Source: an uncultured bacterium
GTDB lineage: Bacteria; Verrucomicrobiota; Verrucomicrobiia; Verrucomicrobiales; DEV007
NCBI GenBank assembly: GCA_963977015.1
Contig: CAXBMO010000009.1
Coordinates: 128,001 to 192,000 of the forward strand
DNA: 64,000 nucleotides
Reading direction: 5' to 3'
Shown here: in pieces, positions 52,096 through 64,000 of the stretch
How the letters are laid out: the number at the start of each line of letters is the position of its first letter
Position numbering within the stretch: the stretch's first letter is position 1
Made by a program: the position numbers and the translations under genes
Notes under the pieces: model-generated
The model's input: only the letters and a program-made list of their open reading frames with translations
Databases searched by the model: none
What the model was told of the DNA's origin: nothing

Positions 52096-53310
52096 CTACT
52101 CGAGGCCGGACGCGGCCTGATAACTTGAGTATGCCGCGTCTGATTCCGTGAATTGGCTGGAAATCGCGATTCCCTCGATCATTCCGTTCCAATTTCGCCC
52201 TTCCAGGTACTCGTCTCCAAACACGAGTTCCTGTTGCACGTCCCAATTGCTGAAATCGCCCTCCACATCCTGGGTGCGAAGCACTTCTTCTCCATCCAGA
52301 TAAGTGACCAACTCTCCCGGCCGGTAGGTGACCAAAACGTAGTGCGAGACATTGGCCTCAATGGGGCAGAGCTTGATTTCAGGGCGGCTGCCGTTCAATC
52401 CCGTCTCAACCGTCCGCAACCTCAAAATCAGCGAATTTCTGGACTGACCAAGAGTGAAGTTCCGCAAATCTCCATCCGTTGAGAAAGTTATGATGCGAGC
52501 GGGGCCGCTCTGGTCGAGATCGAAACTGGTAAAAACGGTTTCCAAGGTCATCTCCCCTGCCCTGCCAATCGCGGAGGTCAGGGGACGGCTCGCCCGGCGA
52601 GCGAGAAAGGACCCATCCACGAGTCGCATCCTCCCCTCATCGTCAAACACCGCCTCGTTTCGCGCCATGAGCCGCACTTTGTTTCGCGAAAGGCCTCCGA
52701 TTTCGGCTTCTTCATCCATTCCACATTTCCAGGCAAAAACGAGCGAGGACTCCCGATCAACCGGCCAATCACGCTGTTCCCAGGACTTGGGTTCCCGCGA
52801 TCCACCTGCCTTGGAACTGCCGGCACTGACGCGGCGGGCTTCTTCCAACACCGCGTTCACGGCTTCAGATTCTCCGGCTAAAAGCAGCGAACTGCGCAAT
52901 GTTTTGAGCCGTTCCAGATACTGAACACGAATCGTTTCCCGCTTGGCATCACGTGCGGCTTGGATTTTTGCAGCTTCCTGACTGAGTTTTTCCCGCACGG
53001 GGCCAATGCCAGGAAATTCGCCTTTCCCAATTTCCTGCCGCATTCGGGCCAACTTGGCTTCAGCTTTTGCCAACGTTGCATTCTCAACATCGCCATTCTC
53101 TTCAAATGCCTGCCCCAACCGTTCAACCGCGACGGCATATTGCTCAAAGAGCGTTCGCTCCCGATCCTCAAAAGGTTCGCAAACAATGTCGAGCATCGCC
53201 TCATACTGTCCGCGCATGACCTCCAACGGAGGTTGTGAATCCTGCGCCAGGATTGACGCGGCTATCCAGAGCTTCAGAATAACGAAGGCAGATGGTTGGA
53301 ATTTAATCAT
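52096..53310 (-). CDS. Exported protein with a helical N-terminus and a LamG-like jellyroll domain
   Basis: TLE..F...Q.GPARI..FS...NFTLGQ...RLRT, H....TY, YLDG, W.G.IE.IAI. Confidence 0.72.
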   Translation of the reverse strand: MIKFQPSAFVILKLWIAASILAQDSQPPLEVMRGQYEAMLDIVCEPFEDRERTLFEQYAVAVERLGQAFEENGDVENATLAKAEAKLARMRQEIGKGEFPGIGPVREKLSQEAAKIQAARDAKRETIRVQYLERLKTLRSSLLLAGESEAVNAVLEEARRVSAGSSKAGGSREPKSWEQRDWPVDRESSLVFAWKCGMDEEAEIGGLSRNKVRLMARNEAVFDDEGRMRLVDGSFLARRASRPLTSAIGRAGEMTLETVFTSFDLDQSGPARIITFSTDGDLRNFTLGQSRNSLILRLRTVETGLNGSRPEIKLCPIEANVSHYVLVTYRPGELVTYLDGEEVLRTQDVEGDFSNWDVQQELVFGDEYLEGRNWNGMIEGIAISSQFTESDAAYSSYQAASGLE

Positions 53311-53381
53311 CAGCAGATTTGGTGAACCAATCGCTAAAAACAGGTTTTCACCGCAAGGTGTTCGCGCTTTGGTCCGGGATT

Positions 53382-54743
53382 ATGTGGAAAGGCCGTTTTG
53401 AAACTGAAACTTCTGATCTTGTTCAACAGCTGGGAGAATCGATCTCGTTCGATTGGCGACTCTATCGTCATGATGTCCGCGGATCGATCGCTCACTCCAA
53501 GGCATTGCTGAATGCTGGCATTCTAACCAGCGAGGAGCAAGCGGCCATTGAAAAGGGACTGCTGGAAATCTGCGACGAAATCGCGAAAGGCGATTTTGAG
53601 TTCAAGATCGAGCTTGAGGACGTTCACATGAATATTGAATCCGCATTGACCGCTCGAATCGGCGATGCCGGGGCCAAGCTTCACACCGCGCGAAGCCGAA
53701 ACGATCAAGTCGCGCTGGATTCACGCATGTATTGCCGGGATGAGGTCGCCGAAATCGGGAACCTGATCTCCGGTCTCCAAACCGCCTTGCTCGATTGCGC
53801 CGAACGCTTCCCCAAAGCCGTCGTTCCGGGATACACCCACCTGCAACGCGGCCAACCCGTCCTCTTCGCCCACCATTTGCTCGCCTACGTGGAGATGTTC
53901 AGCCGGGACGCCGATCGCCTTGCCGATGCACAAACCCGGATTGACGTCATGCCGCTCGGTTCCGGCGCGTTGGCGGGTTCCACCATCGTCCTTGATCGAG
54001 AACTGGTCGCCAAAGAGCTCGGCTTCTCCAAGATCAGTCAAAACAGCATGGACGCCGTCAGCGACCGCGATTTCATCGCCGAAATTCTCTTCGACCTCAG
54101 CCTGCTCGGCCTTCACCTGTCCCGATTGAGCGAGGACATCGTGCTTTGGGCCAGCGCTGAGTTCGGATTCGTCACCTTGAGCGACGCCCACACCACCGGT
54201 TCCAGTCTCATGCCGCAGAAGAAGAACCCGGACGTCGCGGAATTGACGCGCGGCAAGTCGGGACGGCTTGTCGGCAATCTCGTCAGCCTCATCACTACGC
54301 TGAAAGGTCTTCCCATGACCTACAATCGCGACCTTCAGGAGGACAAGGAACCGCTCTTCGACTCCATCGACACCGCCAAACTCGTCCTCAAGGTTTTCAC
54401 TGAAATGATCGCCGAAATGCGCATCAATGAGGAAACGACCCGCGAGGCGGCCAGCGACCCAATGCTCCTGGCAACGGACATTGCCGATTACCTGGTTCTC
54501 AAAGGCATTCCGTTTCGCCAGGCTCACGAAATCGTCGGGAAAGCCACCGCCCACTGCGTCAAGGAGAAGTGCGGTTTCCCGGATCTCACGCTCGACCAAT
54601 TCCGGCAATTCAGCGACGCGTTCGATGATTCCGTGTTCGATCTCTTCAACGTCGAAAAGGCCCTGGCAGCCCGAAAAGGAATCGGTGCGCCATCCCCCGA
54701 AAACGTCGCCTTCCAGATCGAACGTTGGCGAAAAATTCTCTAA
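53382..54743 (+). CDS. argH: Argininosuccinate lyase
   Basis: MWKGRF, EDVH, HTARSRNDQ, PGYTHLQ, GSSLMPQKKNPD. Confidence 0.97.
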   Translation: MWKGRFETETSDLVQQLGESISFDWRLYRHDVRGSIAHSKALLNAGILTSEEQAAIEKGLLEICDEIAKGDFEFKIELEDVHMNIESALTARIGDAGAKLHTARSRNDQVALDSRMYCRDEVAEIGNLISGLQTALLDCAERFPKAVVPGYTHLQRGQPVLFAHHLLAYVEMFSRDADRLADAQTRIDVMPLGSGALAGSTIVLDRELVAKELGFSKISQNSMDAVSDRDFIAEILFDLSLLGLHLSRLSEDIVLWASAEFGFVTLSDAHTTGSSLMPQKKNPDVAELTRGKSGRLVGNLVSLITTLKGLPMTYNRDLQEDKEPLFDSIDTAKLVLKVFTEMIAEMRINEETTREAASDPMLLATDIADYLVLKGIPFRQAHEIVGKATAHCVKEKCGFPDLTLDQFRQFSDAFDDSVFDLFNVEKALAARKGIGAPSPENVAFQIERWRKIL

Positions 54744-54770: not shown

Positions 54771-55442
54771 TCAACGGGTGATGACCGTCGCCCGAATCGG
54801 GGTTTTTGAGCGAGCTTTGCCATAGAGCCTTTCCATCGGAATATCCAACACCGGATACTGCTCCCACCCCACCGCATCAAAGTGCCACCATTCCGTCTTC
54901 ATGATTTTGAACCCATGGCGAACCATGACGGATTGAAGCGTCTTTCGATTCTCGAGAACGCGGCCTTTGAGTTTGAGATACTGGGCGTGGGCTTGCGGCG
55001 TAAAGACGTCGTAGCCAGTCGGCATTTCGAGCTCCCTGCCCATGGCATCGACGAGTGTCAGATCAACCGCCGCGCCTCGATTGTGTCGTGAGCCTCTGGC
55101 CGGGTTCGCCACGAATTTGGGGTTCGGCATGACCTTCCACAACTCCCGCTGGACGGCGAGAGGCCGATATCCGTCCCAGAGTTTCAACCCAAGTCCCTGG
55201 TCTTCCAGTTCAGCCTGAACATTGGCCAACCGTTCCGCGACCGGGCGAAGCAGGTAGGCCCGATGCTCCGGGTAAAATTGTCTGCCACAAAAGTTGTTGG
55301 CCGTCGCATACGGCAGTTCCACAATGATTCCGGGGATGAAGTCATTGATGCAAACCAAGTCTGCGGCCCGAGTTGCCGACGAAGACAGACTTACAATGCC
55401 AACGGTGAGCATCAGAATTCTCATGAGCGGAACCAACATCAT
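54771..55442 (-). CDS. D-alanyl-D-alanine dipeptidase (M15D, VanX/DdpX family) with signal peptide
   Basis: DGYRP, SRHNRGAAVD, MPTGYD, EWWHF. ATG overlaps the kinase stop (ATGA at 55439-55442). Confidence 0.92.
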   Translation of the reverse strand: MMLVPLMRILMLTVGIVSLSSSATRAADLVCINDFIPGIIVELPYATANNFCGRQFYPEHRAYLLRPVAERLANVQAELEDQGLGLKLWDGYRPLAVQRELWKVMPNPKFVANPARGSRHNRGAAVDLTLVDAMGRELEMPTGYDVFTPQAHAQYLKLKGRVLENRKTLQSVMVRHGFKIMKTEWWHFDAVGWEQYPVLDIPMERLYGKARSKTPIRATVITR

Positions 55443-57859
55443 TTGGGACGCATCAAGATTTTACCACTGCTTTGAAGCCGCGTCGCCATCCATCCGACCA
55501 ATTCGGCGTAAACCCAATGCTTCCCATCGACATACCGTTCACTCAGTTGCTTGACGTAGACGTAGTTGTTCACCTCAGCAATTTTGTCACTTCCCGTGTC
55601 CGTGCCTGCGCGCATGGAAAGCACCCCATCGCTTGACTGGACACTCCAGGTTCCGTTGCCGGTCGACTTCATGTAGGTGGTTTGGGTCCCCTCGGCCACC
55701 ATCCACCCTCTCACTCGAACTTCGACCCACCGATTGTTTGCGGTTCGCCCGGTTGCGACCAGAGGAACCGAAAACTGTCGAAACGCGGCGCCCAGACTGG
55801 CCGCATCGCTGTCAGCGGCCGCCCTGACCGTGACACCTTCTTTTCCCGCATAGACCACCTCATAATTGGACACGGCTGGACTTTGCTGAACCGGCGTTGG
55901 ATTCTCCGGGAAGGAAATTTCCGCGTCTTCAATGCGGGCGGAAAGGATAAACCCGGCATCATCAGTTCGGCTCGACTTGATCTCAAAGTAATTGGTTCCG
56001 GTAATGATTTTGCGAGTTGCCCCATCAGAAACGTAGTAGCGGGCCTTCAAGGAAACGGAATATCGCTCGCTCCGAATCTCGCTCACATGGGGCTCACTCA
56101 GAATTTCATGCGTCCTTTGAGTCCACCTCGAATTGTACGCGTTCAGCTTCTCGGCAATTTCATCTCGACCGAGATAACCGTAGTCAAAATAGCGCGCCCG
56201 GTTCGCAAAAAAGCGAAGCTGGTCCTGACCCGAATCACTGTCGCCGGCGCTCAAATAGGCGAGCGCATAGTTTTTGACCGCTTCGCTGTGATCTTCTTTG
56301 ACGGGTTCGGTTTTCGGCTCATCCGGAGGCGGAGTTACGGGTTTGGCGACCGACGCCAATTCGTTGGCTACGTCCATTCGAATTTTTCGAACCCGGTCGC
56401 TCAGTTTGGTCACGGACTTGGAGTGCTTCCTCATTTCGTCCGCCAATTGATTTGCTTCGGCATGAACTTCAGCCGAGGCGCCCTGGCGTTTGGAGATCGA
56501 CAACAATTCGTCCATTCGGTCCATGTTGGCTGACGCTTGATTCGTCATTCTTTCCACTTCATCAACATTGCTTCTGGCCTGGCTACGAAGTGCCGTCAGC
56601 CTGCCCCCCGAAGCGGTGCTGGTTTCCTTGTTAATGGCAATCCAATAGCCGTCTGCCCGATCCCTTTCGCTGCGAATCGTGGCAAAGGTGGTCGAAACCG
56701 ATTGTCGTAGATCCCTCATCGCCGTTGGCGAAGTGCTTCCCGGAACGAAGCCGGCGACGGGATCAACCTTTGGCGGGGGATCGGCAGCATAGGTGATGCG
56801 AGCGGTTGTGCTCTGCACGTCTCCGGGAGGATGGAAACGTTCCCAGGCCAACCATCCTCCTACTCCCAGAATGGCAATGGAGGCAAAAACGACCGCAAAC
56901 AGAAGACCACTTCTCCGATTCGGTTGACGTCCGGTGGCCAATCGTTCTGTTCGCTTTTTGAGTGCGGTTCGTCGTTTCCGGGCATTCTCGAAACATTCCC
57001 GCCATTCCCCCACAGTTTGAGGGCGATGGGTTTCTTCGAAAGATAGGGCGACATCGACGCCGTCAACGAAACCGCTCGAAAAATCCCCCAGGTCCAAGTT
57101 CTGAAAGTTCAACGGATCGACCGCTTTTGTCCGGCCGGCAGCTTCCGGAGGAGCCTTGCCAACCATCGCCCGATACATGACCGCACCCAGCGAATAAATG
57201 TCCGTCCAGGGTCCCTGATTCCCGCTCTCATGATACTGCTCGAACGGGGCATAAGCAGGTGTCAGGACAGCGGTCATCGCCCGGGTCTTTCCGCCCACCG
57301 CCAGTCTCGCACTCCCAAAATCGATCAACACCGGACTGCCATCGCGCGTGATGATGATGTTCTCCGGCTTGATGTCGCGATGCAGATAGCCATTCTCATG
57401 CACAACTTCCAATCCTTCCATGAGCTTGCTGAGAATGGTCCAGAGTTCATCCTCCGAAGGAGTCCGGTCCAATTTTTCCAACCAGTCTCCCAAACTCTCA
57501 CCGTCGAGGAAGTCCGTTACCATGTAGCCGGTGCCATTCGCCTGGAAAATTTCATGAACGCAGACAATGGACTCGTGGTCGCAGGCGGCAAGGATGCGCC
57601 CCTCCTCCATAAATCGCTGTAGCGCCCATTGAAAGGTATCAACATCAGCCTGGGTTTTCGGCGCCACCCTCACTCCATCGCGGGTGGCAAAATCAGACGG
57701 GAGCAACTCTTTGATTGCCACCTTTCTTTTGAGCTCCAGATCCTTAGCCTCGTAGGTGATGCCAAACCCTCCAAAGCCCAGAATTCGGCCCAACTTGTAA
57801 TGACTCAATTGCGTTCCCTCAGCGAGGGCCAACCGATGCGATCTAGCGGTTTGACTCAT
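55439..57859 (-). CDS. Transmembrane Hanks-type Ser/Thr kinase with extracytoplasmic coiled-coil, NTF2-like and two SH3b-like domains
   Basis: GFGGFG, VAIKE, HRDIKPEN, DFG, APFEQ; TM GLLFAVVFASIAILGVGGW; C-terminal repeats VTVRAAADSD...WVEV...GWM and LSMRAGTDTG...WVYA...GWM. Confidence 0.9.
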   Translation of the reverse strand: MSQTARSHRLALAEGTQLSHYKLGRILGFGGFGITYEAKDLELKRKVAIKELLPSDFATRDGVRVAPKTQADVDTFQWALQRFMEEGRILAACDHESIVCVHEIFQANGTGYMVTDFLDGESLGDWLEKLDRTPSEDELWTILSKLMEGLEVVHENGYLHRDIKPENIIITRDGSPVLIDFGSARLAVGGKTRAMTAVLTPAYAPFEQYHESGNQGPWTDIYSLGAVMYRAMVGKAPPEAAGRTKAVDPLNFQNLDLGDFSSGFVDGVDVALSFEETHRPQTVGEWRECFENARKRRTALKKRTERLATGRQPNRRSGLLFAVVFASIAILGVGGWLAWERFHPPGDVQSTTARITYAADPPPKVDPVAGFVPGSTSPTAMRDLRQSVSTTFATIRSERDRADGYWIAINKETSTASGGRLTALRSQARSNVDEVERMTNQASANMDRMDELLSISKRQGASAEVHAEANQLADEMRKHSKSVTKLSDRVRKIRMDVANELASVAKPVTPPPDEPKTEPVKEDHSEAVKNYALAYLSAGDSDSGQDQLRFFANRARYFDYGYLGRDEIAEKLNAYNSRWTQRTHEILSEPHVSEIRSERYSVSLKARYYVSDGATRKIITGTNYFEIKSSRTDDAGFILSARIEDAEISFPENPTPVQQSPAVSNYEVVYAGKEGVTVRAAADSDAASLGAAFRQFSVPLVATGRTANNRWVEVRVRGWMVAEGTQTTYMKSTGNGTWSVQSSDGVLSMRAGTDTGSDKIAEVNNYVYVKQLSERYVDGKHWVYAELVGWMATRLQSSGKILMRPK

Positions 57860-58038
57860 GTTCTCCTGTACCTTTCTCCCCTTGACGCTCTCAATTTTTG
57901 GCCCTGAAAGTCAAGCACGAAGTCAGCCTCGCAACAGGGTCGCATTCTACGGGTCAAAAACCCAGAATTTGGTTTGACCAGGAGAACCCAACTAGGCTAG
58001 CAATAGGCCAATGATGATAAAAGGAGGGGCGAACATTC

Positions 58039-59499
58039 TTGGTTAATTCACCGCTAGCGACCAGACGCACGAACGTTGCGTTCAGAAGGTTGGGATTTCT
58101 TCTGCTTTTTATCGGGATGGTTGCTCTGGGGTGGGCACGGTTCGATTTCCGACAAATAAAGGATGGAGTGGTCCGAATTGTCGTGTTGAGTGAGGAAGCG
58201 GAAACGACGGGCAAGGGAATGATTTCGCTAGGTTCCGGATTCGTCATTTCCTCCCAAGGTCATATCGTTACAAATCAGCATATGATCGATAAACCGGGTA
58301 GGATTCTTGCGGTTCAACTTCGGGACAACAAAGTCAAAGTCTGGAGAGTCGGCGCCGTGGTGTATGAAAGCCGGGAAAAGGACTTGGCAGTCCTGCTGGT
58401 CCCCGAGCTCGGGGGCCTTCCAATCCGCCTTGCCAAGAACGATCCTTACCCTGGCGACGAAGTGATTACGATCGGATTCCCTGGCATGGCCGATGCCCAA
58501 CAGGAAAAGGATTTTTTCGTCAATGCGTTGCTGGAATCCGGGTTCCGCGACTTGCCACTGAAAGACGGTTACGTGAATTTCGTCCGGCCCTCCGTGATCC
58601 GCGGAAATGTGGAGGATGTCAGGATTCAATCAAATTGGGGACGCGACAACAATGCCCGGTGCACGATCATTCGGCATAACGCACCCACAGCCAGTGGAAA
58701 TAGCGGAGGCGCTCTGGTCAACGATTCCAACGAAATTGTCGGAGTGCATACCGCCAGCGATGCCGAGGCACGTGATGACAAAACCAAGGCCTCACAGGGC
58801 AAAAAAGTCGGCCTGGGCCTCGCCGTCAGCGAACTGATCGAAGTCCTGGAATCCGTAGGCATTCCCTACAACGAAATTCCTGCCAAGACGACCGGTGAAG
58901 TCGAACCAGGAAATTCCCGCTCGGAAACCTCCACAGCTGAAGAGGCGGCTCCCACTTGGGCCAAAGCATTGCCCTTTGTAATGATCGGTTTGGCCGTGGT
59001 ATTGGTTATTCCCGCGCTCAAGTTGCTGTTGGGAGATCGGACCTCAACAAAGACCGCACGCAGAAAGCCTCATCAACGAATCGCGGGCGAGTTCCCTTCT
59101 GCCCCGGCTTCAGAGAAGGGAGCCACGGTCGGAAACCAGAGGTCCAACCACCAATCCAACGGAAGATTACTCGGCTCGTTATCGGGCACGGACGAGCAAG
59201 GAAAACGCTACTTTTTTCAACTTTCTGCTTCCGATTTTCAGGGAAGGGGCGATAGCTTGAAAGTCGGCAGGACAGGCAATCACGTCGAGATAGCTATCCC
59301 ACATCCCAGCATTTCTCGAGTGCATGCATCCCTCCGTTATTCCCCTGACAATAATGAAATTGCACTACGTGATGAAAACTCTGCAAATGGTTGCAGAATC
59401 AACGGCAAAAAGTTGACGGCTAAGGACGGTTTTCAGCCAATCGGAGGCGGTGATTGTCTCCAGTTGGGAACTGTGAAACTGGTTTACCAGCCCGAATAA
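58039..59499 (+). CDS. Trypsin-like serine protease, TM, FHA domain fusion (exact start uncertain)
   Basis: GSGFVI, TNQH, DLAVL, GNSGG triad; TM ALPFVMIGLAVVLVI; FHA motifs VGR, SRVHA, NSANG..ING. Confidence 0.88.
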   Translation: MVNSPLATRRTNVAFRRLGFLLLFIGMVALGWARFDFRQIKDGVVRIVVLSEEAETTGKGMISLGSGFVISSQGHIVTNQHMIDKPGRILAVQLRDNKVKVWRVGAVVYESREKDLAVLLVPELGGLPIRLAKNDPYPGDEVITIGFPGMADAQQEKDFFVNALLESGFRDLPLKDGYVNFVRPSVIRGNVEDVRIQSNWGRDNNARCTIIRHNAPTASGNSGGALVNDSNEIVGVHTASDAEARDDKTKASQGKKVGLGLAVSELIEVLESVGIPYNEIPAKTTGEVEPGNSRSETSTAEEAAPTWAKALPFVMIGLAVVLVIPALKLLLGDRTSTKTARRKPHQRIAGEFPSAPASEKGATVGNQRSNHQSNGRLLGSLSGTDEQGKRYFFQLSASDFQGRGDSLKVGRTGNHVEIAIPHPSISRVHASLRYSPDNNEIALRDENSANGCRINGKKLTAKDGFQPIGGGDCLQLGTVKLVYQPE

Positions 59500-59518
59500 C
59501 GACTCAAGTTTTCAATAA

Positions 59519-61315
59519 ATGGCATTAGAAAACCGACAGGCACTTATTCCAGGCACCATCTTGGGCGAAAAATACGAAATTCTTTCGTTACTCGGAAGCG
59601 GGGGATTCGGAATCACCTATCTCGCCATCGACAATACGCTCAATCGCAAAGTCGCGATCAAGGAGTTGATGCCAGGCGAGTTTGCGATGCGGGATTGGGA
59701 CTCCGAGGAGATCGTCGCAAAAACGCTGTCAGAGGAAACCTCACTCCAGTGGGCCAAGGATCGCTTCATTGAGGAAGCACGGGTACTCGCCCAATTTGAT
59801 CATCCTAACATCATTCATATCCACGACTATTTCATCTCGAGAAACACCGCCTACATGGTGACTTCTTATGAAGAGGGAGCTGATCTCAATACGTTTTTAA
59901 AGGAGAAAGGGCTCTTTCATCAGGAAGACATCAACACTTACATTCTCCCGATCCTCAATGGACTGCAGCTGGTCCACGAAAGCGGATTTCTGCACCGCGA
60001 CATCAAGCCCGACAATATCTACATCAATCACAAGGGCATCCCCATTCTTCTCGACTTTGGAGCGGCCCGCCAAGCCATTGGCAACAAAACCCGGGACATG
60101 ACGGCGATCGTCACGCCCCGATTCGCGCCGTTGGAGCAATACTCCAGCGATGGGAATATGGGGCCGTGGTCAGATATCTATTCCCTCGCCGCCGTCATCC
60201 ACAAAGTCATCACTGGCGATGCCCCACCTGACGCGACGACCCGGATTCGGTCCGATACCTACGAACCGTTGGCGGAAAAGCGCATCAAGGGCTTTGATCA
60301 CGCGTTCTTGACCTGTGTTGACTGGGCCTTGGAACAGTCCGAGGAACGGCGACCGCAAACCATTGCTCAATGGGTCGACCACTTCACGGTTTCGGGAGGC
60401 GCTCCACCAATCCCCACCGATCACTTTTCAGAAACCGTGGTGGCCGGAGGCAGTCGCGCCCCGTCGAGGCCTGTGAGAAGATCCACAGAAGAAACGGTCT
60501 TGACTCAACCTCGCCCCTCTTCAGCGGTTTCCGAACCCAGGAAATCACGCACAGGTCTCATCGCCGCCTTGTTTCTGGGATCAGCACTGTTTCTCGGCTT
60601 GGGAGGATTTGTGGCGCTGCGCCAATATTCCCCCGATCTCATCGCGTTCTTCGATAGCAGCGAATCCGACAATGATTCATCCGGTCCCATTGACGACGGT
60701 ACAGGCGGAAATGACACTGGGGCTCCACCACCCAACCCAATTCCCGAGGACGACAGCAAGCCCGACGTTTCCGAGGAAGAACCGGACAAGCAAACCGAAT
60801 CCCCGATCATCCTCCCACCGACTCCTCCAAAACCGCCGGACGAGACCAAGCCTCCGGTAGAATCAGTTTCACTCGATGAGTTGGTCGACTACGTGACCGC
60901 TGTGGACCGCCGACTGTGGGATGCCTGGTATGCGGACCGAATCATTCGAGCGTCGATCCAACCGCAGATGAACCTTCGTGATCCGGATATGAGCGAAGCG
61001 GAATTTCGGGCCAACCAGACCAAACTCCAGGAAGCCTTCACCGCCCGAAACAATCAGGTCATCCAGTACTGCGAGGACGTTCGCCTCGACGTCGCGAAGC
61101 TGATGAAATACGAAGAGTCGCAAGTGGATCAGGCCTTTGCCGCCAGACTCAGCCAAATCCAGCAAACCGGAGTTGAGCGCAAGGTTAATACGGAAGTTCA
61201 ACAGAAACTTCTTGGAATCGCAAAGTCCATTTATAAGGATGAAAAGGCGGGTTTGATCGTGAACGCAAACGCCATCAGGGAACGAATCAAAGGCCTTTCT
61301 GCATTGCAGAAATAA
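59519..61315 (+). CDS. Transmembrane Hanks-type Ser/Thr kinase with a Pro-rich stalk and helical extracytoplasmic domain
   Basis: GSGGFG, VAIKE, HRDIKPDN, DFG, APLEQ; TM LIAALFLGSALFLGLGGFV. Confidence 0.92.
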   Translation: MALENRQALIPGTILGEKYEILSLLGSGGFGITYLAIDNTLNRKVAIKELMPGEFAMRDWDSEEIVAKTLSEETSLQWAKDRFIEEARVLAQFDHPNIIHIHDYFISRNTAYMVTSYEEGADLNTFLKEKGLFHQEDINTYILPILNGLQLVHESGFLHRDIKPDNIYINHKGIPILLDFGAARQAIGNKTRDMTAIVTPRFAPLEQYSSDGNMGPWSDIYSLAAVIHKVITGDAPPDATTRIRSDTYEPLAEKRIKGFDHAFLTCVDWALEQSEERRPQTIAQWVDHFTVSGGAPPIPTDHFSETVVAGGSRAPSRPVRRSTEETVLTQPRPSSAVSEPRKSRTGLIAALFLGSALFLGLGGFVALRQYSPDLIAFFDSSESDNDSSGPIDDGTGGNDTGAPPPNPIPEDDSKPDVSEEEPDKQTESPIILPPTPPKPPDETKPPVESVSLDELVDYVTAVDRRLWDAWYADRIIRASIQPQMNLRDPDMSEAEFRANQTKLQEAFTARNNQVIQYCEDVRLDVAKLMKYEESQVDQAFAARLSQIQQTGVERKVNTEVQQKLLGIAKSIYKDEKAGLIVNANAIRERIKGLSALQK

Positions 61316-61370
61316 TGGACGACTTTTCTCAACAACTCTCCAACCAACAAAACACACACACAAAAACACA

Positions 61371-62006
61371 ATGAAAATACGAATTGTAGCCCTGGCTCTG
61401 ATTCCCGCACTGTTCCTATCCAGTTGCCAAACGACGAACATCGCAGAGACCCCGGATGAACTGAAAACGATGCGCCAAGCCAAAATCACATGGGCTGGAG
61501 CCGGAGCGATTTCAGGAGCAGCCGTGGGTGCAGGCATCGCGGCATTGAGTGGCGGAAGCTCGACGGCGATTCGTAATGCCGCAATTGGGGGCGGTATTGC
61601 AGGACTGGTGGCAGGACATCAAGTTGGAACACAGAAAGGCACGCAAACGGTAGAGAAAAAGCGGAGCTACACGGCAACCGAAGATTACCTGGCTGGCCAA
61701 ATCAGCAATGCGCAGAAGTTCAACTCCGCCTTGGTTTCCTATAACAGCAAGTTGAGGGGCCAAATCGCCTCTGCTAAGTCAAGTCCCGACGGTGCTGCGA
61801 TTCGCGGTCAGATCAAAACCGCAAACGCCGTGCTGAAAGAGGTTGACTCGGAAATGACCACACGGACCAAGCTTTTGGAAAATGCGGAAAGTGGTCCATC
61901 CAAAAACACGCTTACCCAGAAGAAGAACAGCCTGGCTCAACAAAAGAAGCAGCTGGAAAACAGCATTGCTGAGCTCGAGGAATTGGAGAAAATCTCCAAG
62001 GTATAA
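61371..62006 (+). CDS. Glycine-zipper/coiled-coil lipoprotein (TagQ-like architecture)
   Basis: Lipobox LSSC; GAGAISGAAVGAGIAA...AAIGGGIAGLVAG; heptad-rich C-terminus. Confidence 0.8.
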   Translation: MKIRIVALALIPALFLSSCQTTNIAETPDELKTMRQAKITWAGAGAISGAAVGAGIAALSGGSSTAIRNAAIGGGIAGLVAGHQVGTQKGTQTVEKKRSYTATEDYLAGQISNAQKFNSALVSYNSKLRGQIASAKSSPDGAAIRGQIKTANAVLKEVDSEMTTRTKLLENAESGPSKNTLTQKKNSLAQQKKQLENSIAELEELEKISKV

Positions 62007-62039
62007 CCTTCGAGGAGTAGGACGACAACGAACCACCCT

Positions 62040-62426
62040 ATGAATTGGATTTATCATACTCTAAGAGTTACAGGCATCGCTGGTGTGTTGATCTTCGGCA
62101 CCGCATGTGAGACAACCGGCGATCCAAGAGCAGGCGGCTACTGGAACTGGAGCGAGACCAAGGCAATTCAACGCCAGGACGATCTCCGCGGCACCCTTGG
62201 TTCGCTCAACAGGGAGAACAGCCGTTTGCAAAGTGAACAGGCCAGCCTCAAAGCCCAATTGCGGAGCAAACAGTCGCAATTGAGTTCCTTGCAGCAGCAG
62301 AAAAAACGCGCTCAGCAGGAGTCAAAACCGGATCTCGTGGCCGCAACCACCAAAGAAATCAACCAACTCCAAGGTGATATCTCCTCGTTGGAAGCGGATC
62401 TTCGCCGGATTGAAAGCCGCATGTAG
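62040..62426 (+). CDS. Small coiled-coil lipoprotein
   Basis: Lipobox GTAC, then ETTGDPRAGGYWNWSE and heptad repeats. Confidence 0.78.
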   Translation: MNWIYHTLRVTGIAGVLIFGTACETTGDPRAGGYWNWSETKAIQRQDDLRGTLGSLNRENSRLQSEQASLKAQLRSKQSQLSSLQQQKKRAQQESKPDLVAATTKEINQLQGDISSLEADLRRIESRM

Positions 62427-62453
62427 TCATGGAGTAGCGATCACGAATATCTT

Positions 62454-62493
62454 CCCCGCCTTCTCTCGCCACGCCAGAGAAGGCGGGGTTCTT
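62454..62493 (+). terminator. Strong intra-operon hairpin (terminator or mRNA stabiliser)
   Basis: Perfect 13-bp stem ccccgccttctct / agagaaggcgggg with a 9-nt loop, followed by ttctt. Confidence 0.65.
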
Positions 62494-62569
62494 GGTGGCA
62501 GGCTTGGGAAATAACATGATAACTTTTCACAAAACACCGTGGAGGCGAACGCTACTACCGGGCTGATTG

Positions 62570-63850
62570 ATGAGTTGGTTAGGCACAGATTATAGTCACA
62601 TTGGCACAAGGGACGAACAACAGGACGCCCTCGTTGTTCTCAGCAATGAAACCAAGGACCAAGTCTTTGCCGTGCTGGCCGATGGCGCAGGCGGTCACAG
62701 TGGGGGGAGATTGGCATCGGAAGCGATCGTCGCCGTCGCGACCAAACGGTGGGAAACCGCCGCTGGAGAAATACCCGACCCCGAAACGTTTTTACTCGAC
62801 TTTTTTGCCCACGCCCAAGCCCGAATTACGGCGACCGGAAAAAAGGCAGGCATCGAACCGCGGGCAACCGTCGTGGCAGTCTATGCCAACGGGAAAAGAG
62901 CAGTTTGGGGGCACTCGGGAGATTCTCGACTCTACCTGTTTCGGAAAGGTCAATTGGTCAAGCGAACCAAAGATCATTCCGTGGTGCAGATCCTCGTCGA
63001 TCAGGGAAAGGTTCGTGAAGAGGAAATGGGAACTCACCCCGACCAAGGTCGACTGCTTCAGTCGCTGGGAGGTTCCGACTATCAAGTACCAGATATTGGG
63101 AGCGCAAATATTCAGGGTGATGAAGTGATTGTTCTCTGTTCTGACGGCTTCTGGGAACACCTGCCAAAAGAAGCCATTGCCCAACTCTCCGTTCCCGGAA
63201 AATTAAAGCCTCCCAAACTGATTAAGAAGCTCGCTCACGCGGCCGTCAGTCGAGCCGGCCAGAAAGCCGACAATACAAGTGCGCTGGCGATCTACAACAT
63301 TGCCGCCAATCGGCCGGCCTTTTTCATGGGAGGAATCCATTGGGCTGCAGTTGCCTTGTTCTGCCTGTTGGCGGGAATGGTGACCTATCTTGTAATGTAT
63401 CTGATCAAGCCTGACAGCTCTCCAGGCAACCAACCTCCCGATGCTCCAGTCCAAAACGTTGCATCCCAAGTGGTTTCCGGCGGCCCCAAAACTTCTCCAG
63501 CTGATCAAGCCCCCATTCCGAACGAAAGCGAAGATATCCGCGAGGCTGGTGAAAATCCCCTTCCAAAGGCACTGGATCCAACAACAGGAAAGCCAAAAGT
63601 AAGGATTATCCCCAATATTATCCAGCCGGCTCCAGATGCCCCCACAGCTATCGTGGAGCCTGCCTCCCCAGTTGAAGAGGTGCCTGTCGAACCCACGCCC
63701 CCGCCCACCTCTCCTACAGATCAGCCAACGACGCCAGAGAACACCGGCGAGGTTCCTCCCATGTCGCCGGACTCACCACCGGCAGACGAGGAAAAGGGCA
63801 TTATTCGCAAAGGATTCGAAAAGTTAAATCCGATTAAGAGAGACAAATGA
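62570..63850 (+). CDS. PP2C/PPM-family Ser/Thr phosphatase with a TM and Pro-rich tail
   Basis: GTRDEQQD, LADGAGGH, GDSR, CSDG, DNTS; TM WAAVALFCLLAGMVTYLV. Confidence 0.92.
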   Translation: MSWLGTDYSHIGTRDEQQDALVVLSNETKDQVFAVLADGAGGHSGGRLASEAIVAVATKRWETAAGEIPDPETFLLDFFAHAQARITATGKKAGIEPRATVVAVYANGKRAVWGHSGDSRLYLFRKGQLVKRTKDHSVVQILVDQGKVREEEMGTHPDQGRLLQSLGGSDYQVPDIGSANIQGDEVIVLCSDGFWEHLPKEAIAQLSVPGKLKPPKLIKKLAHAAVSRAGQKADNTSALAIYNIAANRPAFFMGGIHWAAVALFCLLAGMVTYLVMYLIKPDSSPGNQPPDAPVQNVASQVVSGGPKTSPADQAPIPNESEDIREAGENPLPKALDPTTGKPKVRIIPNIIQPAPDAPTAIVEPASPVEEVPVEPTPPPTSPTDQPTTPENTGEVPPMSPDSPPADEEKGIIRKGFEKLNPIKRDK

Positions 63851-64000
63851 AGCGCCTTCACCTACTCATCGCCCTGCTACTGGCCGCTCTTCAATCCAGT
63901 TCACTGGGATGGGATGCGAAAACTGCCGAAGACGTCGTGGTGCGAGTCGCGATTTTCACGAGTAGCGGAAAATATTCCGGTCACGGATCAGGCTTCGTCG
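63847..64000 (+). CDS. Probable secreted trypsin-like serine protease, N-terminus only (runs off the right edge)
   Basis: Not in the ORF track. ATG overlaps the PP2C stop. MKRLHLLIALLLAALQSSSLGWDAKTAEDVVVRVAIFTSSGKYSGHGSGFV has a signal peptide plus VVRV...GSGFV, as in 58039-59499. Confidence 0.7.
   Translation, partial: MKRLHLLIALLLAALQSSSLGWDAKTAEDVVVRVAIFTSSGKYSGHGSGFV

Follow-up and report, generated by a model that had tools for sequence, protein, structure and literature searches.

A locus of Hanks kinases, PP2C phosphatases and FHA-bearing proteases in an uncultured Verrucomicrobiales bacterium as a probable stand-alone phosphothreonine signalling system

Modules that combine a Hanks kinase, a PP2C phosphatase and an FHA domain are known mainly from the switch of the secretion system of type VI (T6SS) and from actinobacterial growth control. 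In the H1-T6SS pathway of Pseudomonas aeruginosa, TagQ and TagR promote activation of the kinase PpkA following membrane damage (PMC13713981), and PpkA itself joins a kinase to a vWA domain (PMC1262709). In Mycobacterium tuberculosis, the two-FHA ABC exporter Rv1747 is positively regulated by the kinase of its operon, PknF (PMC3138270, PMC3908365). Here we describe a locus of an uncultured bacterium (lineage Verrucomicrobiales; DEV007) that begins in a 64,000-nucleotide stretch of DNA, referred to as the window (assembly GCA_963977015.1, contig CAXBMO010000009.1, positions 128,001 to 192,000). The locus encodes kinases, phosphatases, lipoproteins and two proteins in which a predicted periplasmic protease is linked through a transmembrane (TM) helix to a cytoplasmic FHA domain (protease-TM-FHA). 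The known signalling logic appears to be wired here to another output, namely proteases and an adhesin-like vWA protein held beyond the membrane by an FHA-bearing tail.

We put the probability that this locus is a stand-alone, membrane-spanning phosphothreonine (pThr) signalling system, and not a T6SS regulator, at roughly 60%. The Hanks kinase/PP2C/FHA logic is known; its linkage to protease-TM-FHA effectors is without a description found in print. A literature search, which did not cover subscription journals, returned no report of protease-TM-FHA proteins in kinase/PP2C operons. It also returned none of the overall arrangement, in line with an earlier reading of the window made from its letters alone (the sequence-only reading). 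The nearest mention, in the available part of a 2008 survey, is one FHA-FHA-trypsin protein of Bacteroides thetaiotaomicron, listed with the opposite domain order and no context (PMC2605481).

Gene content of the two convergent operons

Gene content was checked by open reading frame (ORF) listing, Pfam searches, a hydropathy scan and motif inspection. The sequence-only reading had described a divergent locus, with a TM kinase and a D-Ala-D-Ala dipeptidase running leftward and a protease-FHA protein, a second kinase, two lipoproteins, a PP2C phosphatase and, coupled to it, another trypsin-like gene running rightward. ORFs, Pfam matches, topology and motifs confirmed every one of these genes and its position (Table 1). 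The window belongs to an assembly of 6.89 Mb that is 95.26% complete (genome G000), in which it spans G000:C9:128001-192000; contig position equals window position + 128000. Positions above 64000 are extrapolated window coordinates, read from the continuation of the same contig.

With this continuation, the system is about twice the size visible in the window. The plus-strand operon spans 58039-66542 and faces a convergent eight-gene operon (74463-66564, minus strand), with a 21-nt gap between the convergent STK3 and exporter genes. Together, the two operons encode two or three active-looking single-pass Hanks kinases, two PP2C phosphatases and seven FHA domains spread over six proteins. Writer, eraser and reader of pThr are all present, as proposed earlier from the window; the assignment is borne out by the intact Hanks kinase motifs VAIK, HRD and DFG, the PP2C metal motifs and the FHA residues GR, SxxH and N. 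Four of the FHA proteins are membrane-bound, with their other part facing or working across the envelope: two HtrA-like S1 proteases, a vWA protein and an ABCG-type exporter. No transcription factor is encoded within the cluster, so the output would be post-translational.

Genes are closely spaced inside each operon, with overlaps of 1-4 nt (at four junctions) or gaps of at most 140 nt; the PP2C1 and TrpFHA2 genes overlap by 4 nt. The divergent STK1 and TrpFHA1 genes are separated by 179 nt. A promoter and terminator scan of 20 kb was uninformative, yielding 8 promoter-like sites versus 11.2 expected and 26 terminator-like sites versus 24.7 expected.

A TM Hanks kinase, a PP2C, an FHA protein, a lipoprotein, an ABC transporter and a vWA domain are the same kinds of part that regulate the P. 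aeruginosa H1-T6SS, and the locus might be a post-translational T6SS regulator whose structural genes lie just outside the window. The 24 proteins scanned from window position 52096 to extrapolated position 93440, however, include no T6SS family. Models of TssC (PF05943) and Hcp (PF05638), positive in an E. coli control, had 0 matches in the 95.26%-complete genome, and no T6SS genes were found among the scanned neighbours of related loci. The cluster FHA domains scored 30.1 and 48.3 bits against the T6SS TagH model TIGR03354 (cut-off 120.25), with matches confined to the FHA domain. We therefore regard T6SS regulation as extremely improbable. The earlier observation that the window holds no T6SS structural gene extends to the 30 kb downstream; past position 64000 no T6SS cluster follows directly, and the genes of the locus co-occur in other genomes. 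Of the additional genes that the sequence-only reading had named as worth looking for beyond the edge, vWA and FHA-ABC genes were found. An FGE-sulfatase gene was met only about 18 kb off, and neither operon contains an FGE-sulfatase domain.

Table 1. Genes of the locus in window coordinates (aa, amino acids; MIDAS, metal ion-dependent adhesion site)
Product	Position	Strand	Features
Peptidase_M15 D-Ala-D-Ala dipeptidase, 223 aa	54771-55442	-	Pfam PF01427, E 1e-31; signal peptide
STK1, Hanks kinase, 806 aa	55439-57859	-	Pkinase, E 1.8e-36; TM 319-337
TrpFHA1, 486 aa	58039-59499	+	Trypsin_2 (65-236), E 7.3e-20; FHA (408-476), E 3.8e-11
STK2, Hanks kinase	59519-61315	+	Pkinase, E 9.8e-40; TM 347-365
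p211 lipoprotein	61371-62006	+	lipobox LSSC; glycine zipper, coiled coil
p128 small lipoprotein	62040-62426	+	conserved Cys, coiled coil
PP2C1	62567-63850	+	PP2C_2, E 2.4e-11; TM 262-280; Pro-rich tail
TrpFHA2, 474 aa	63847-65271 (63847-64000, first 51 codons, in window)	+	Trypsin_2-TM-FHA; 8 nt to STK3
STK3, tail-anchored non-RD kinase	65280-66542	+	single TM; HCD for HRD; VAIK and DFG intact
FHA-FHA-ABC_tran-ABC2_membrane exporter, 804 aa	66564-68978	-	ABC_tran, E 2.5e-31; ABC2_membrane, E 2.8e-25; FHA in 2 stretches
PP2C2, soluble PP2C, 259 aa	69054-69833	-	metal motifs present
FHA_228 adaptor, small soluble FHA protein	69833-70519	-	
MotA/ExbB-like protein, 276 aa	70545-71375	-	three TM helices; MotA_ExbB (PF01618)
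FHA_139	71372-71791	-	
vWA-TM-FHA, 486 aa	71809-73269	-	signal peptide, vWA, TM, FHA
Doubtful ORF, 65 aa	73266-73463	-	no family
Single-pass coiled-coil vWA protein, 328 aa	73477-74463	-	VWA_3 with perfect MIDAS motif
STK4, pseudokinase with degenerate FHA	74729-76561	+	

Protease-FHA proteins, gene neighbourhoods and distribution

TrpFHA1 is predicted to consist of a signal/anchor helix (TM 13-31), a periplasmic HtrA-like S1 protease, a second helix (TM 313-331) and a cytoplasmic FHA domain, which agrees with the earlier proposal that the reader is joined to a periplasmic S1 protease through a single TM helix. A word-based homologue search gave 3 matches; phmmer, run exhaustively on 1.84 billion cluster representatives, returned 8876 matches at E <= 0.001, 551 at E <= 1e-10 and 11 at E <= 1e-30. 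The family is not rare, with 551 representatives at E <= 1e-10, and RefSeq names its members by domain only. Many of the 150 listed matches are 400-590 aa long and form one continuous alignment from protease to FHA. In an alignment of 40 rows (the two own copies and 38 of the 150 listed matches, picked for high score or full-length alignment), the catalytic triad H81, D115 and S222 (GNSGG) and the FHA residues G410 and R411 were invariant in 40/40 members, and the FHA Ser, His and Asn were at least 90% conserved. Such invariance implies selection that keeps both the protease and the FHA half functional.

The closest solved relatives of the protease are DegS (best PDB match, E 2.8e-13), HtrA1, DegP and AlgW. 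By Pfam, the cluster proteases have no PDZ domain, and their scores against the DegS model TIGR02038 (56.9, cut-off 422.95) and the DegP model TIGR02037 (55.7, cut-off 416.2) are low. A tree was built from 17 protease-FHA proteins; the partial protein of locus L138, unfused proteases, the Azospirillum copy described below and unnamed library representatives were excluded. In this tree, TrpFHA1 groups with Verrucomicrobiaceae copies of the lipoprotein-type loci (support 90/96), and TrpFHA2 forms a separate old lineage.

Related loci were collected with a 10-row alignment that amounted effectively to one protease-motif pattern; most of the 160 loci are unrelated proteases and were used as a control. 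ORFs of the loci were labelled by phmmer with the cluster's own domains, and key neighbours were checked with Pfam. Beside protease-FHA fusions other than our own (n = 16), a kinase was found in 14/16 loci and a PP2C in 14/16. The misses are a 2.2-kb contig with neither gene (L138), a 5.2-kb contig without the PP2C (L136) and a locus with no kinase in the 2 kb downstream (L137). Among control loci, whose protease has no fused FHA domain, a kinase, PP2C or FHA label occurred in only 8/148, and most of these eight look like an unfused form of the same gene set.

A core of five genes recurs in one order, ectodomain-TM-FHA, FHA_228-type adaptor, PP2C, protease-TM-FHA and kinase, in five loci from two phyla. 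These belong to Luteolibacter (L019), a Verrucomicrobiaceae metagenome-assembled genome (L021), a genome of another family (L215, genome G275), Roseovarius (L078) and Azospirillum lipoferum 4B, on its 645-kb plasmid AZO_p4 (L238, NC_016587.1:527944-547137, with the cluster at ~535.2-542.4 kb). In L021, the core is followed by p211, p128, a second PP2C and the FHA-ABC gene; the Roseovarius locus has one extra kinase, and the plasmid copy an extra PP2C and a DUF805 gene. Housekeeping genes flank the modules of L019, L021 and L215 and thereby set the module borders. None of the five loci carries the MotA-like channel. The gene products of the plasmid copy are all named by domain only. Since its carrier, A. 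lipoferum 4B, can be cultivated, the hypothesis is directly testable. Genes of DUF4384 and OmpA-family proteins precede the plasmid copy, and ISL3 and IS630 transposases follow it.

An extended form is found in three further loci (L226, L227 and L228), where 11 genes lie on one strand in the same order: vWA-TM-FHA, FHA_139-like, MotA-like, FHA_228-like, PP2C, single-pass vWA, protease-TM-FHA, three kinases and a large PP2C. This single-strand form shows that the two convergent operons described here form a single system, which includes the MotA-like channel and the single-pass vWA protein.

These arrangements bear on the view that the locus is a chance pile-up of paralogous signalling genes, with no functional link, in a kinase-rich genome of the PVC group. 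The genome does hold 28 Pkinase and at least 15 FHA matches, further kinases follow downstream, and the leftward kinase and dipeptidase are not conserved with the rest. Against it, six of the 15 Pfam FHA matches of the genome fall in 12.8 kb of contig C9, where an even spread over 6.89 Mb would place about 0.03, and six of the 28 Pkinase matches fall in 33.5 kb. Gene order is kept in the five core loci and in the three 11-gene loci, four junctions overlap, and the protease-FHA fusion predicts kinase and PP2C neighbours far better than does the unfused protease. A chance assembly is very improbable, and we return to the view of the locus as a signalling system.

In another genome of the same genus (G001), both operons are present with unchanged gene order and 45-74% identity, minus the FHA-ABC gene. 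An 889-aa TPR-S/Trypsin_2/GDSL lipase gene is inserted on the opposite strand between its p128 and PP2C1 orthologues (L018:14691-17360 (-)). The argininosuccinate lyase gene that flanks the locus here was not found adjoining the G001 cluster, which therefore lies elsewhere in that genome. Homologues of p211 and p128, whose neighbourhoods had been singled out as a test in the sequence-only reading, were found with the module in G001, L019 and L021.

Other loci differ in their sensors and effectors. A Phragmitibacter locus (L022) lacks p211 and p128, and its kinase has an FGE-sulfatase ectodomain (E 1.3e-35); an FGE-sulfatase domain is also borne by the PP2C of L227. In two small genomes of one family (f2), a signal peptide, an HExxH (M12-like) metalloprotease, a TM helix and an FHA domain form one protein beside a MotA-like gene, at the site that the S1 protease-TM-FHA protein occupies in other variants (L229:7861-10515 (-) and L230:6423-9482 (-)); their Reprolysin matches are near or under the cut-off, with a clear HExxH motif and topology. 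Bacillota loci have only the protease, PP2C and kinase set, with FHA fused to the protease in L089 and placed on a separate small protein in L088 and L093. Sensors and effectors are thus swapped between variants, with a constant kinase/PP2C/adaptor core and a constant principle of an extracytoplasmic effector joined through a TM helix to FHA, a modularity that suits a sensor, core and effector logic. The Phragmitibacter locus is neighboured by genes for a 646-aa STAS/OmpA protein, a GYF_2/DUF4190 protein and a 724-aa Lon_C protein (L022:2984-5558 (-) and L022:13910-16084 (+)); these three may be further variable parts.

The adaptor was detected in 11/151 sampled genomes of the order (~7%), and the protease-FHA fusion in at least 1/400 other genomes of an even phylum sample, a figure that is a floor. 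The system appears to have spread horizontally across Verrucomicrobiota, Alphaproteobacteria (including the plasmid with adjoining insertion sequence (IS) elements) and Bacillota.

Sensor, adaptor and channel parts and a possible mechanism

STK2 has intact kinase motifs and looks active. Its TM helix is followed by a Pro/acid-rich linker and a five-helix periplasmic domain (~445-598), modelled as a confident five-helix bundle from a 4-row alignment (local distance difference test as predicted (pLDDT) 91.2, predicted TM-score (pTM) 0.82). A Foldseek search of the model against solved structures (pdb) gave nothing at E <= 0.001 (best 0.49), and a wide VIA-align search reached Z 7.8 at best, with generic helical hairpins from which no family could be named. 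The ectodomain of the L021 kinase aligns at just 17% identity.

The two lipoproteins were found only with kinases of this helical-ectodomain type, in our genome, G001, L019 and L021. The p211 protein has a glycine zipper (~43-86) and a C-terminal coiled coil, and its orthologues in G001, L019 and L021 share 35 invariant columns. Its Atlas feature score of 0.92 to clusters of Gly-zipper lipoproteins is a lead only; matches to Pfam Rick_17kDa_Anti (E 0.046) and in NCBIfam are under the cut-offs. In p128, a TTGDPxxGGYxxWS motif after the Cys precedes the coiled coil; motif and Cys are kept in 4/4 orthologues, and Pfam returned only coiled-coil noise. Three-chain prediction of the STK2 ectodomain with p211 and p128 scored 0.34, against 0.04 for the best control (runs 0.02, 0.36 and 0.34), with contact agreement of at least 0% and partner pLDDT of at least 77. 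In the calibration of this method, such passes were more often wrong than right unless the complex was likely beforehand; the models are compatible with a complex of p211 and p128 with the STK2 ectodomain and lend it weak support.

The dipeptidase gene on the left overlaps the STK1 gene by 4 nt. The dipeptidase retains the zinc motifs SxHxxGxAxD and ExxH and reaches 164.8 bits against NCBIfam PRK10178, under the cut-off of 176. STK1 comprises a Hanks kinase domain (1-300) with all of the motifs GxGxxG, VAIK, HRDIKPEN and DFG, a TM helix and a beta-rich ectodomain of 470 aa, for which an AlphaFold 2 (AF2) model from a single sequence was unusable (pLDDT 37.1). STK1 is paralogous to the module kinase; with a kinase domain 49% identical to the G001 orthologue of STK2, it may have been recruited as an additional sensor. 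The sequence-only reading had counted this pair among the module parts, with cell-wall remodelling as an output. The STK1 orthologue of G001 lies on a different contig, followed by a tandem kinase paralogue and with no adjoining M15 gene, and none of the 167 related loci labelled with an M15 query showed an M15 relative. STK1 and the dipeptidase are therefore neighbours and not conserved parts of the module, and cell-wall remodelling is unsupported as an output, since the dipeptidase is not conserved with the module.

The middle of the STK1 ectodomain (window 55942-56362 (-), residues ~500-640) recurs at 27-34% identity C-terminal to trypsin-like proteases (G000:C11:166538-167554 and G003:C404), as an unnamed periplasmic domain common to the kinase and the proteases. 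Upstream of the dipeptidase are ordinary flank genes, encoding a 404-aa Laminin_G_3 (concanavalin-like) protein (52096-53310 (-)) and argininosuccinate lyase (ArgH, 53319-54743 (+)).

The kinship of the proteases with DegS, HtrA1, DegP and AlgW, the resemblance of p211 to glycine-zipper outer-membrane lipoproteins and the presence next door of a beta-rich-ectodomain kinase and a secreted DD-dipeptidase would suit an accessory regulator of envelope quality control or biogenesis. Its kinases would monitor the outer membrane, lipoproteins or peptidoglycan, and its tethered proteases would clear misplaced envelope proteins, as a DegS/DegP-type system under internal control. Such a regulator is hard to square with proteases that lack PDZ and score far under the DegS and DegP cut-offs, with the absence of an anti-sigma or sigma partner, with an occurrence in ~7% of sampled genomes of the order, which excludes a general housekeeping function, and with a dipeptidase link that is not conserved. 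We consider it quite unlikely.

The signalling reading gains from the soluble adaptor FHA_228. Its disordered N-terminus bears three conserved acidic-x-T-R-[IL]-[IV] motifs ahead of the FHA domain; 0.02 would be expected, and 0/2000 shuffles reached three, for a motif that was defined after being seen. Similar T-R-[IL]-[IV] motifs are present in FHA_228 orthologues of L019, L021 and L022. Many FHA domains prefer Thr with a hydrophobic residue at +3, and the Thr motifs of the adaptor are likely phospho-acceptor and docking sites. Several pThr sites together with its own FHA domain would make the adaptor multivalent. Of the two phosphatases, PP2C1 has its PP2C domain at 1-250, with metal-site motifs, on the cytoplasmic side of its TM helix and the Pro-rich tail outside; it scores 142.7 bits against NCBIfam Stp1_PP2C, under the cut-off of 230.

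The MotA/ExbB-like protein passes the Pfam model at 38.2 bits (cut-off 22.9, E 1.5e-9) and is the most divergent of the genome's copies that pass the cut-off at E <= 1e-9. Among 150 genomes of the order, six close homologues were found at E <= 1e-38. The gene is flanked by FHA proteins in 6/6 of these loci, and the single-pass partner is encoded in the same operon in 5/6, the sixth being a 4.8-kb contig that ends before it. The N-terminus is the most conserved part of this single-pass vWA protein, and the Asp in its sole TM helix is invariant in 8/8 sequences. A TM Asp is a hallmark of the MotB/ExbD/TolR partners of MotA-family channels. In the f2 loci, the partner has no known domain in place of the coiled coil and vWA. 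The whole genome contains 18 MotA_ExbB and 22 ExbD matches and no MotB_plug match; its set of Ton/Tol-type motor genes is unusually large, with no sign of a flagellar stator.

The channel gene lying between FHA proteins in all six loci invites an analogy with the Myxococcus Agl-Glt machinery, in which TolQR-like motors act with single-pass FHA proteins such as GltG; the locus might then control or power an apparatus for surface motility or adhesion. vWA domains often bind surface ligands, and the FHA domains of the vWA-FHA protein and TrpFHA2 match NCBIfam GltG weakly (51.5 and 25.3 bits, cut-off 650). These matches are limited to the FHA domain, the five-gene core does without the channel, and no other Glt, Agl, pilus or gliding gene occurs in any scanned locus, which makes this role improbable.

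Beside the two operons, STK4 shows changes at key positions: Lys of VAIK to Glu, HRD to HLG, DFG to EFG and the FHA Gly-Arg to Gly-Ser. Its C-terminus is 52% identical to the FHA domain of FHA_228, with loss of the Gly-Arg and Ser of the pThr pocket. STK4 is kept beside the cluster in G001 and may act as a scaffold. The 65-aa ORF overlaps one neighbour by 4 nt but matches no family, lacks relatives in G001 and the labelled loci, and is unlikely to be a gene. Farther downstream (76592-90705, L003:2592-16705), four genes make up what looks like a conflict-system neighbourhood. They encode an nSTAND1 NTPase of 1778 aa (E 4e-87), a protein of 1218 aa that matches no family in Pfam or PADLOC, an 895-aa fusion of kinase and TIR_2, and a 655-aa kinase. 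Beyond the last of these kinases follow ThuA and the FGE-sulfatase gene mentioned above.

The direction and role of signalling are what we infer from these parts. The five-helix ectodomain of the kinase, with p211 and p128, would sense a periplasmic or outer-membrane cue. The kinases would then autophosphorylate and also phosphorylate the Thr motifs of the adaptor and Thr-rich linkers. The two proteases, the vWA protein and the exporter would dock on the pThr marks through their cytoplasmic FHA tails, which would cluster the single-pass proteins. HtrA-type proteases function as oligomers, and such clustering would turn on proteolysis on the periplasmic side as well as export. The system would be reset by membrane-bound PP2C1 and cytoplasmic PP2C2. 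In the extended form, proton-motive energy or a sense of mechanical disturbance may come from the MotA/ExbB-like channel through its likely partner, the single-pass vWA protein. If this proposal is true, periplasmic proteolysis would be switched from the cytoplasm within seconds, without transcription, and pThr signalling would be linked to a MotA-type ion channel.

Several findings weigh against this account. The adaptor occurs in 0/36 sampled genomes of the own family besides G000, and its system is missing from a third genome of the genus (G002, 92% complete); with so patchy a spread (11/151), the system cannot serve a core function of the envelope. In the vWA-TM-FHA protein, the MIDAS motif is degenerate (DLSAP). 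For the single-pass vWA protein there is no Pfam MotB_plug or ExbD match, no MotB/ExbD homology was detected, and hhalign of its N-terminus with the ExbD N-termini of the same genome gave a probability of 0.7%; its pairing with the MotA-like protein is likely, not established, because homology is not demonstrable. Finally, the placement of TrpFHA1 and TrpFHA2 in the tree implies that the locus is a composite of two related subsystems and not a recent tandem duplication. The two proteases are old paralogues of different lineages, and the locus may hold two separately working systems.

As to biological role, patchy spread, swapped sensors and effectors and conflict-type neighbours make us lean towards defence or competition. 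One specific version places the locus in biological conflict, as a sensor of a breach or an attacker (phage, epibionts, contact-dependent or predatory neighbours), with proteases and exporter that would destroy or expel the intruder or kill the cell. It concerns role and overlaps with the signalling system preferred here. Beyond the patchy distribution, the apparent horizontal spread with a plasmid and IS elements, and the swapping of domains, it is favoured by the nSTAND1 NTPase and kinase-TIR genes nearby, by the TPR-S/trypsin/GDSL gene inside the G001 copy and by the precedent of threat sensing through a kinase, phosphatase and FHA protein in the Esr pathway, as given in the available text (PMC13622651). 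The MotA-family channel recalls Zorya, with a ZorA match of E 5.9e-5 at the domain level only. It is opposed by PADLOC-DB 2.0, in which no system-specific model matched; the matches were to generic kinase (PD-T4-6, mad6), protease, ABC and MotA domains. The two operons also contain no nuclease, NADase or pore-former, and no MoxR ATPase that would point to a vWA-MoxR ternary system. We treat this version as possible, with a tentative place behind the general reading.

The furthest-reaching proposal would make the locus the founding example of a widespread trans-envelope machine. A kinase-written, FHA-read pThr signalosome would gather proteases (S1 or HExxH), vWA adaptors and an exporter at a breach, coupled in the extended form to a novel type of proton-driven MotA motor partnered by vWA, for rapid, transcription-independent innate defence against phage, epibionts or contact attackers; the TagQRST-PpkA pathway of the T6SS would be a specialised offshoot of this more ancient scheme. 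This remains speculative and, as a whole, rather unlikely.

Comparison with known systems

The likely channel pair resembles the stators MotAB, ExbBD, TolQR and ZorAB in that a MotA_ExbB channel is encoded together with a single-pass protein bearing a TM Asp. It differs in that the partner carries a coiled coil and vWA in place of an OmpA-like or TonB/TolA-coupled domain, and in the FHA proteins that flank the channel gene.

The proteases resemble DegS as periplasmic S1 enzymes with a His-Asp-Ser triad at the inner membrane, presumably off until a signal arrives. Unlike DegS and other HtrA proteins, they have no PDZ domain, their anchor is C-terminal to the protease, and they score far under the family cut-offs. 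With a cytoplasmic FHA domain beyond this C-terminal anchor, these proteases, unlike DegS, would take their regulatory input from the cell interior.

Among operons with vWA domains, Deinococcus radiodurans DRA0331-DRA0334 likewise combines vWA, a Ser/Thr protein kinase, FHA and PP2C, with a kinase/PP2C push-pull via FHA docking (bioRxiv 10.64898/2026.01.23.701218, available part), and the TerY-P triad brings together vWA, PP2C and kinase (PMC11090510). As far as they are described in the available text, both are tied to DNA-damage kinases or restriction systems, unlike the present locus. The kinases of TerY-P terminate in a zinc ribbon or OB fold (PMC11090510); those of the present locus span the membrane once and have ectodomains, its vWA proteins carry a TM helix or signal peptide, and proteases are included.

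The Esr pathway of Actinomycetales shares an extracytoplasmic sensor, a kinase/phosphatase pair and a variable FHA output protein with diverse output domains (PMC13622651). According to the available part of that paper, Esr relies on beta-propeller filaments as well as on MoxR and vWA proteins and acts through transcription or Esx secretion; the scanned cluster proteins include no MoxR, propeller or Esx member. With no AAA+/MoxR family among the cluster proteins, the locus is not a vWA-MoxR-VMAP ternary system in the sense of the accessible descriptions (PMC7159879, PMC13622651).

The closest overall likeness is to the P. aeruginosa H1-T6SS pathway (PpkA, PppA, Fha1, TagQ, TagR and TagS/T). 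In the available account of that pathway (PMC13713981), as here, a single-pass Hanks kinase with a periplasmic domain is combined with a PP2C antagonist and an FHA reader, with one or more lipoproteins upstream of the kinase in the signalling order, and an ABC-type component, a vWA domain and a post-translational output are present. The kinase/PP2C pairing corresponds at the domain level only: STK2 and STK3 have one TM each and catalytic motifs, and PP2C1 and PP2C2 have metal motifs. The FGE-sulfatase domain of the L022 kinase and the L227 PP2C belongs to the superfamily to which TagR is assigned (PMC13713981, available part). The sequence-only reading also called TagQ a glycine-zipper lipoprotein, a phrase absent from the available text of the TagQ/TagR paper (PMC13713981). 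Several features set the locus apart. It has no T6SS, and where that pathway has FHA on a soluble T6SS scaffold, the FHA domains here are carried by tethered proteases, a vWA protein and an exporter. vWA is on an FHA protein and not on a kinase, and the vWA ectodomain of PpkA is absent from these kinases. The ABC component is a half-transporter of ABCG type that bears two FHA domains, and there are several kinases and two phosphatases.

That exporter matches M. tuberculosis PknF-Rv1747 at the level of architecture, with an FHA-FHA-ABC_tran-ABC2_membrane layout beside a Hanks kinase. Unlike Rv1747, it is one of four FHA-bearing membrane effectors and is dispensable to the module, being missing in G001 and most related loci. 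The regulation of Rv1747 by PknF, as far as the available sources describe it, is a precedent for a membrane effector, here a two-FHA exporter, that a kinase controls positively through FHA and pThr.

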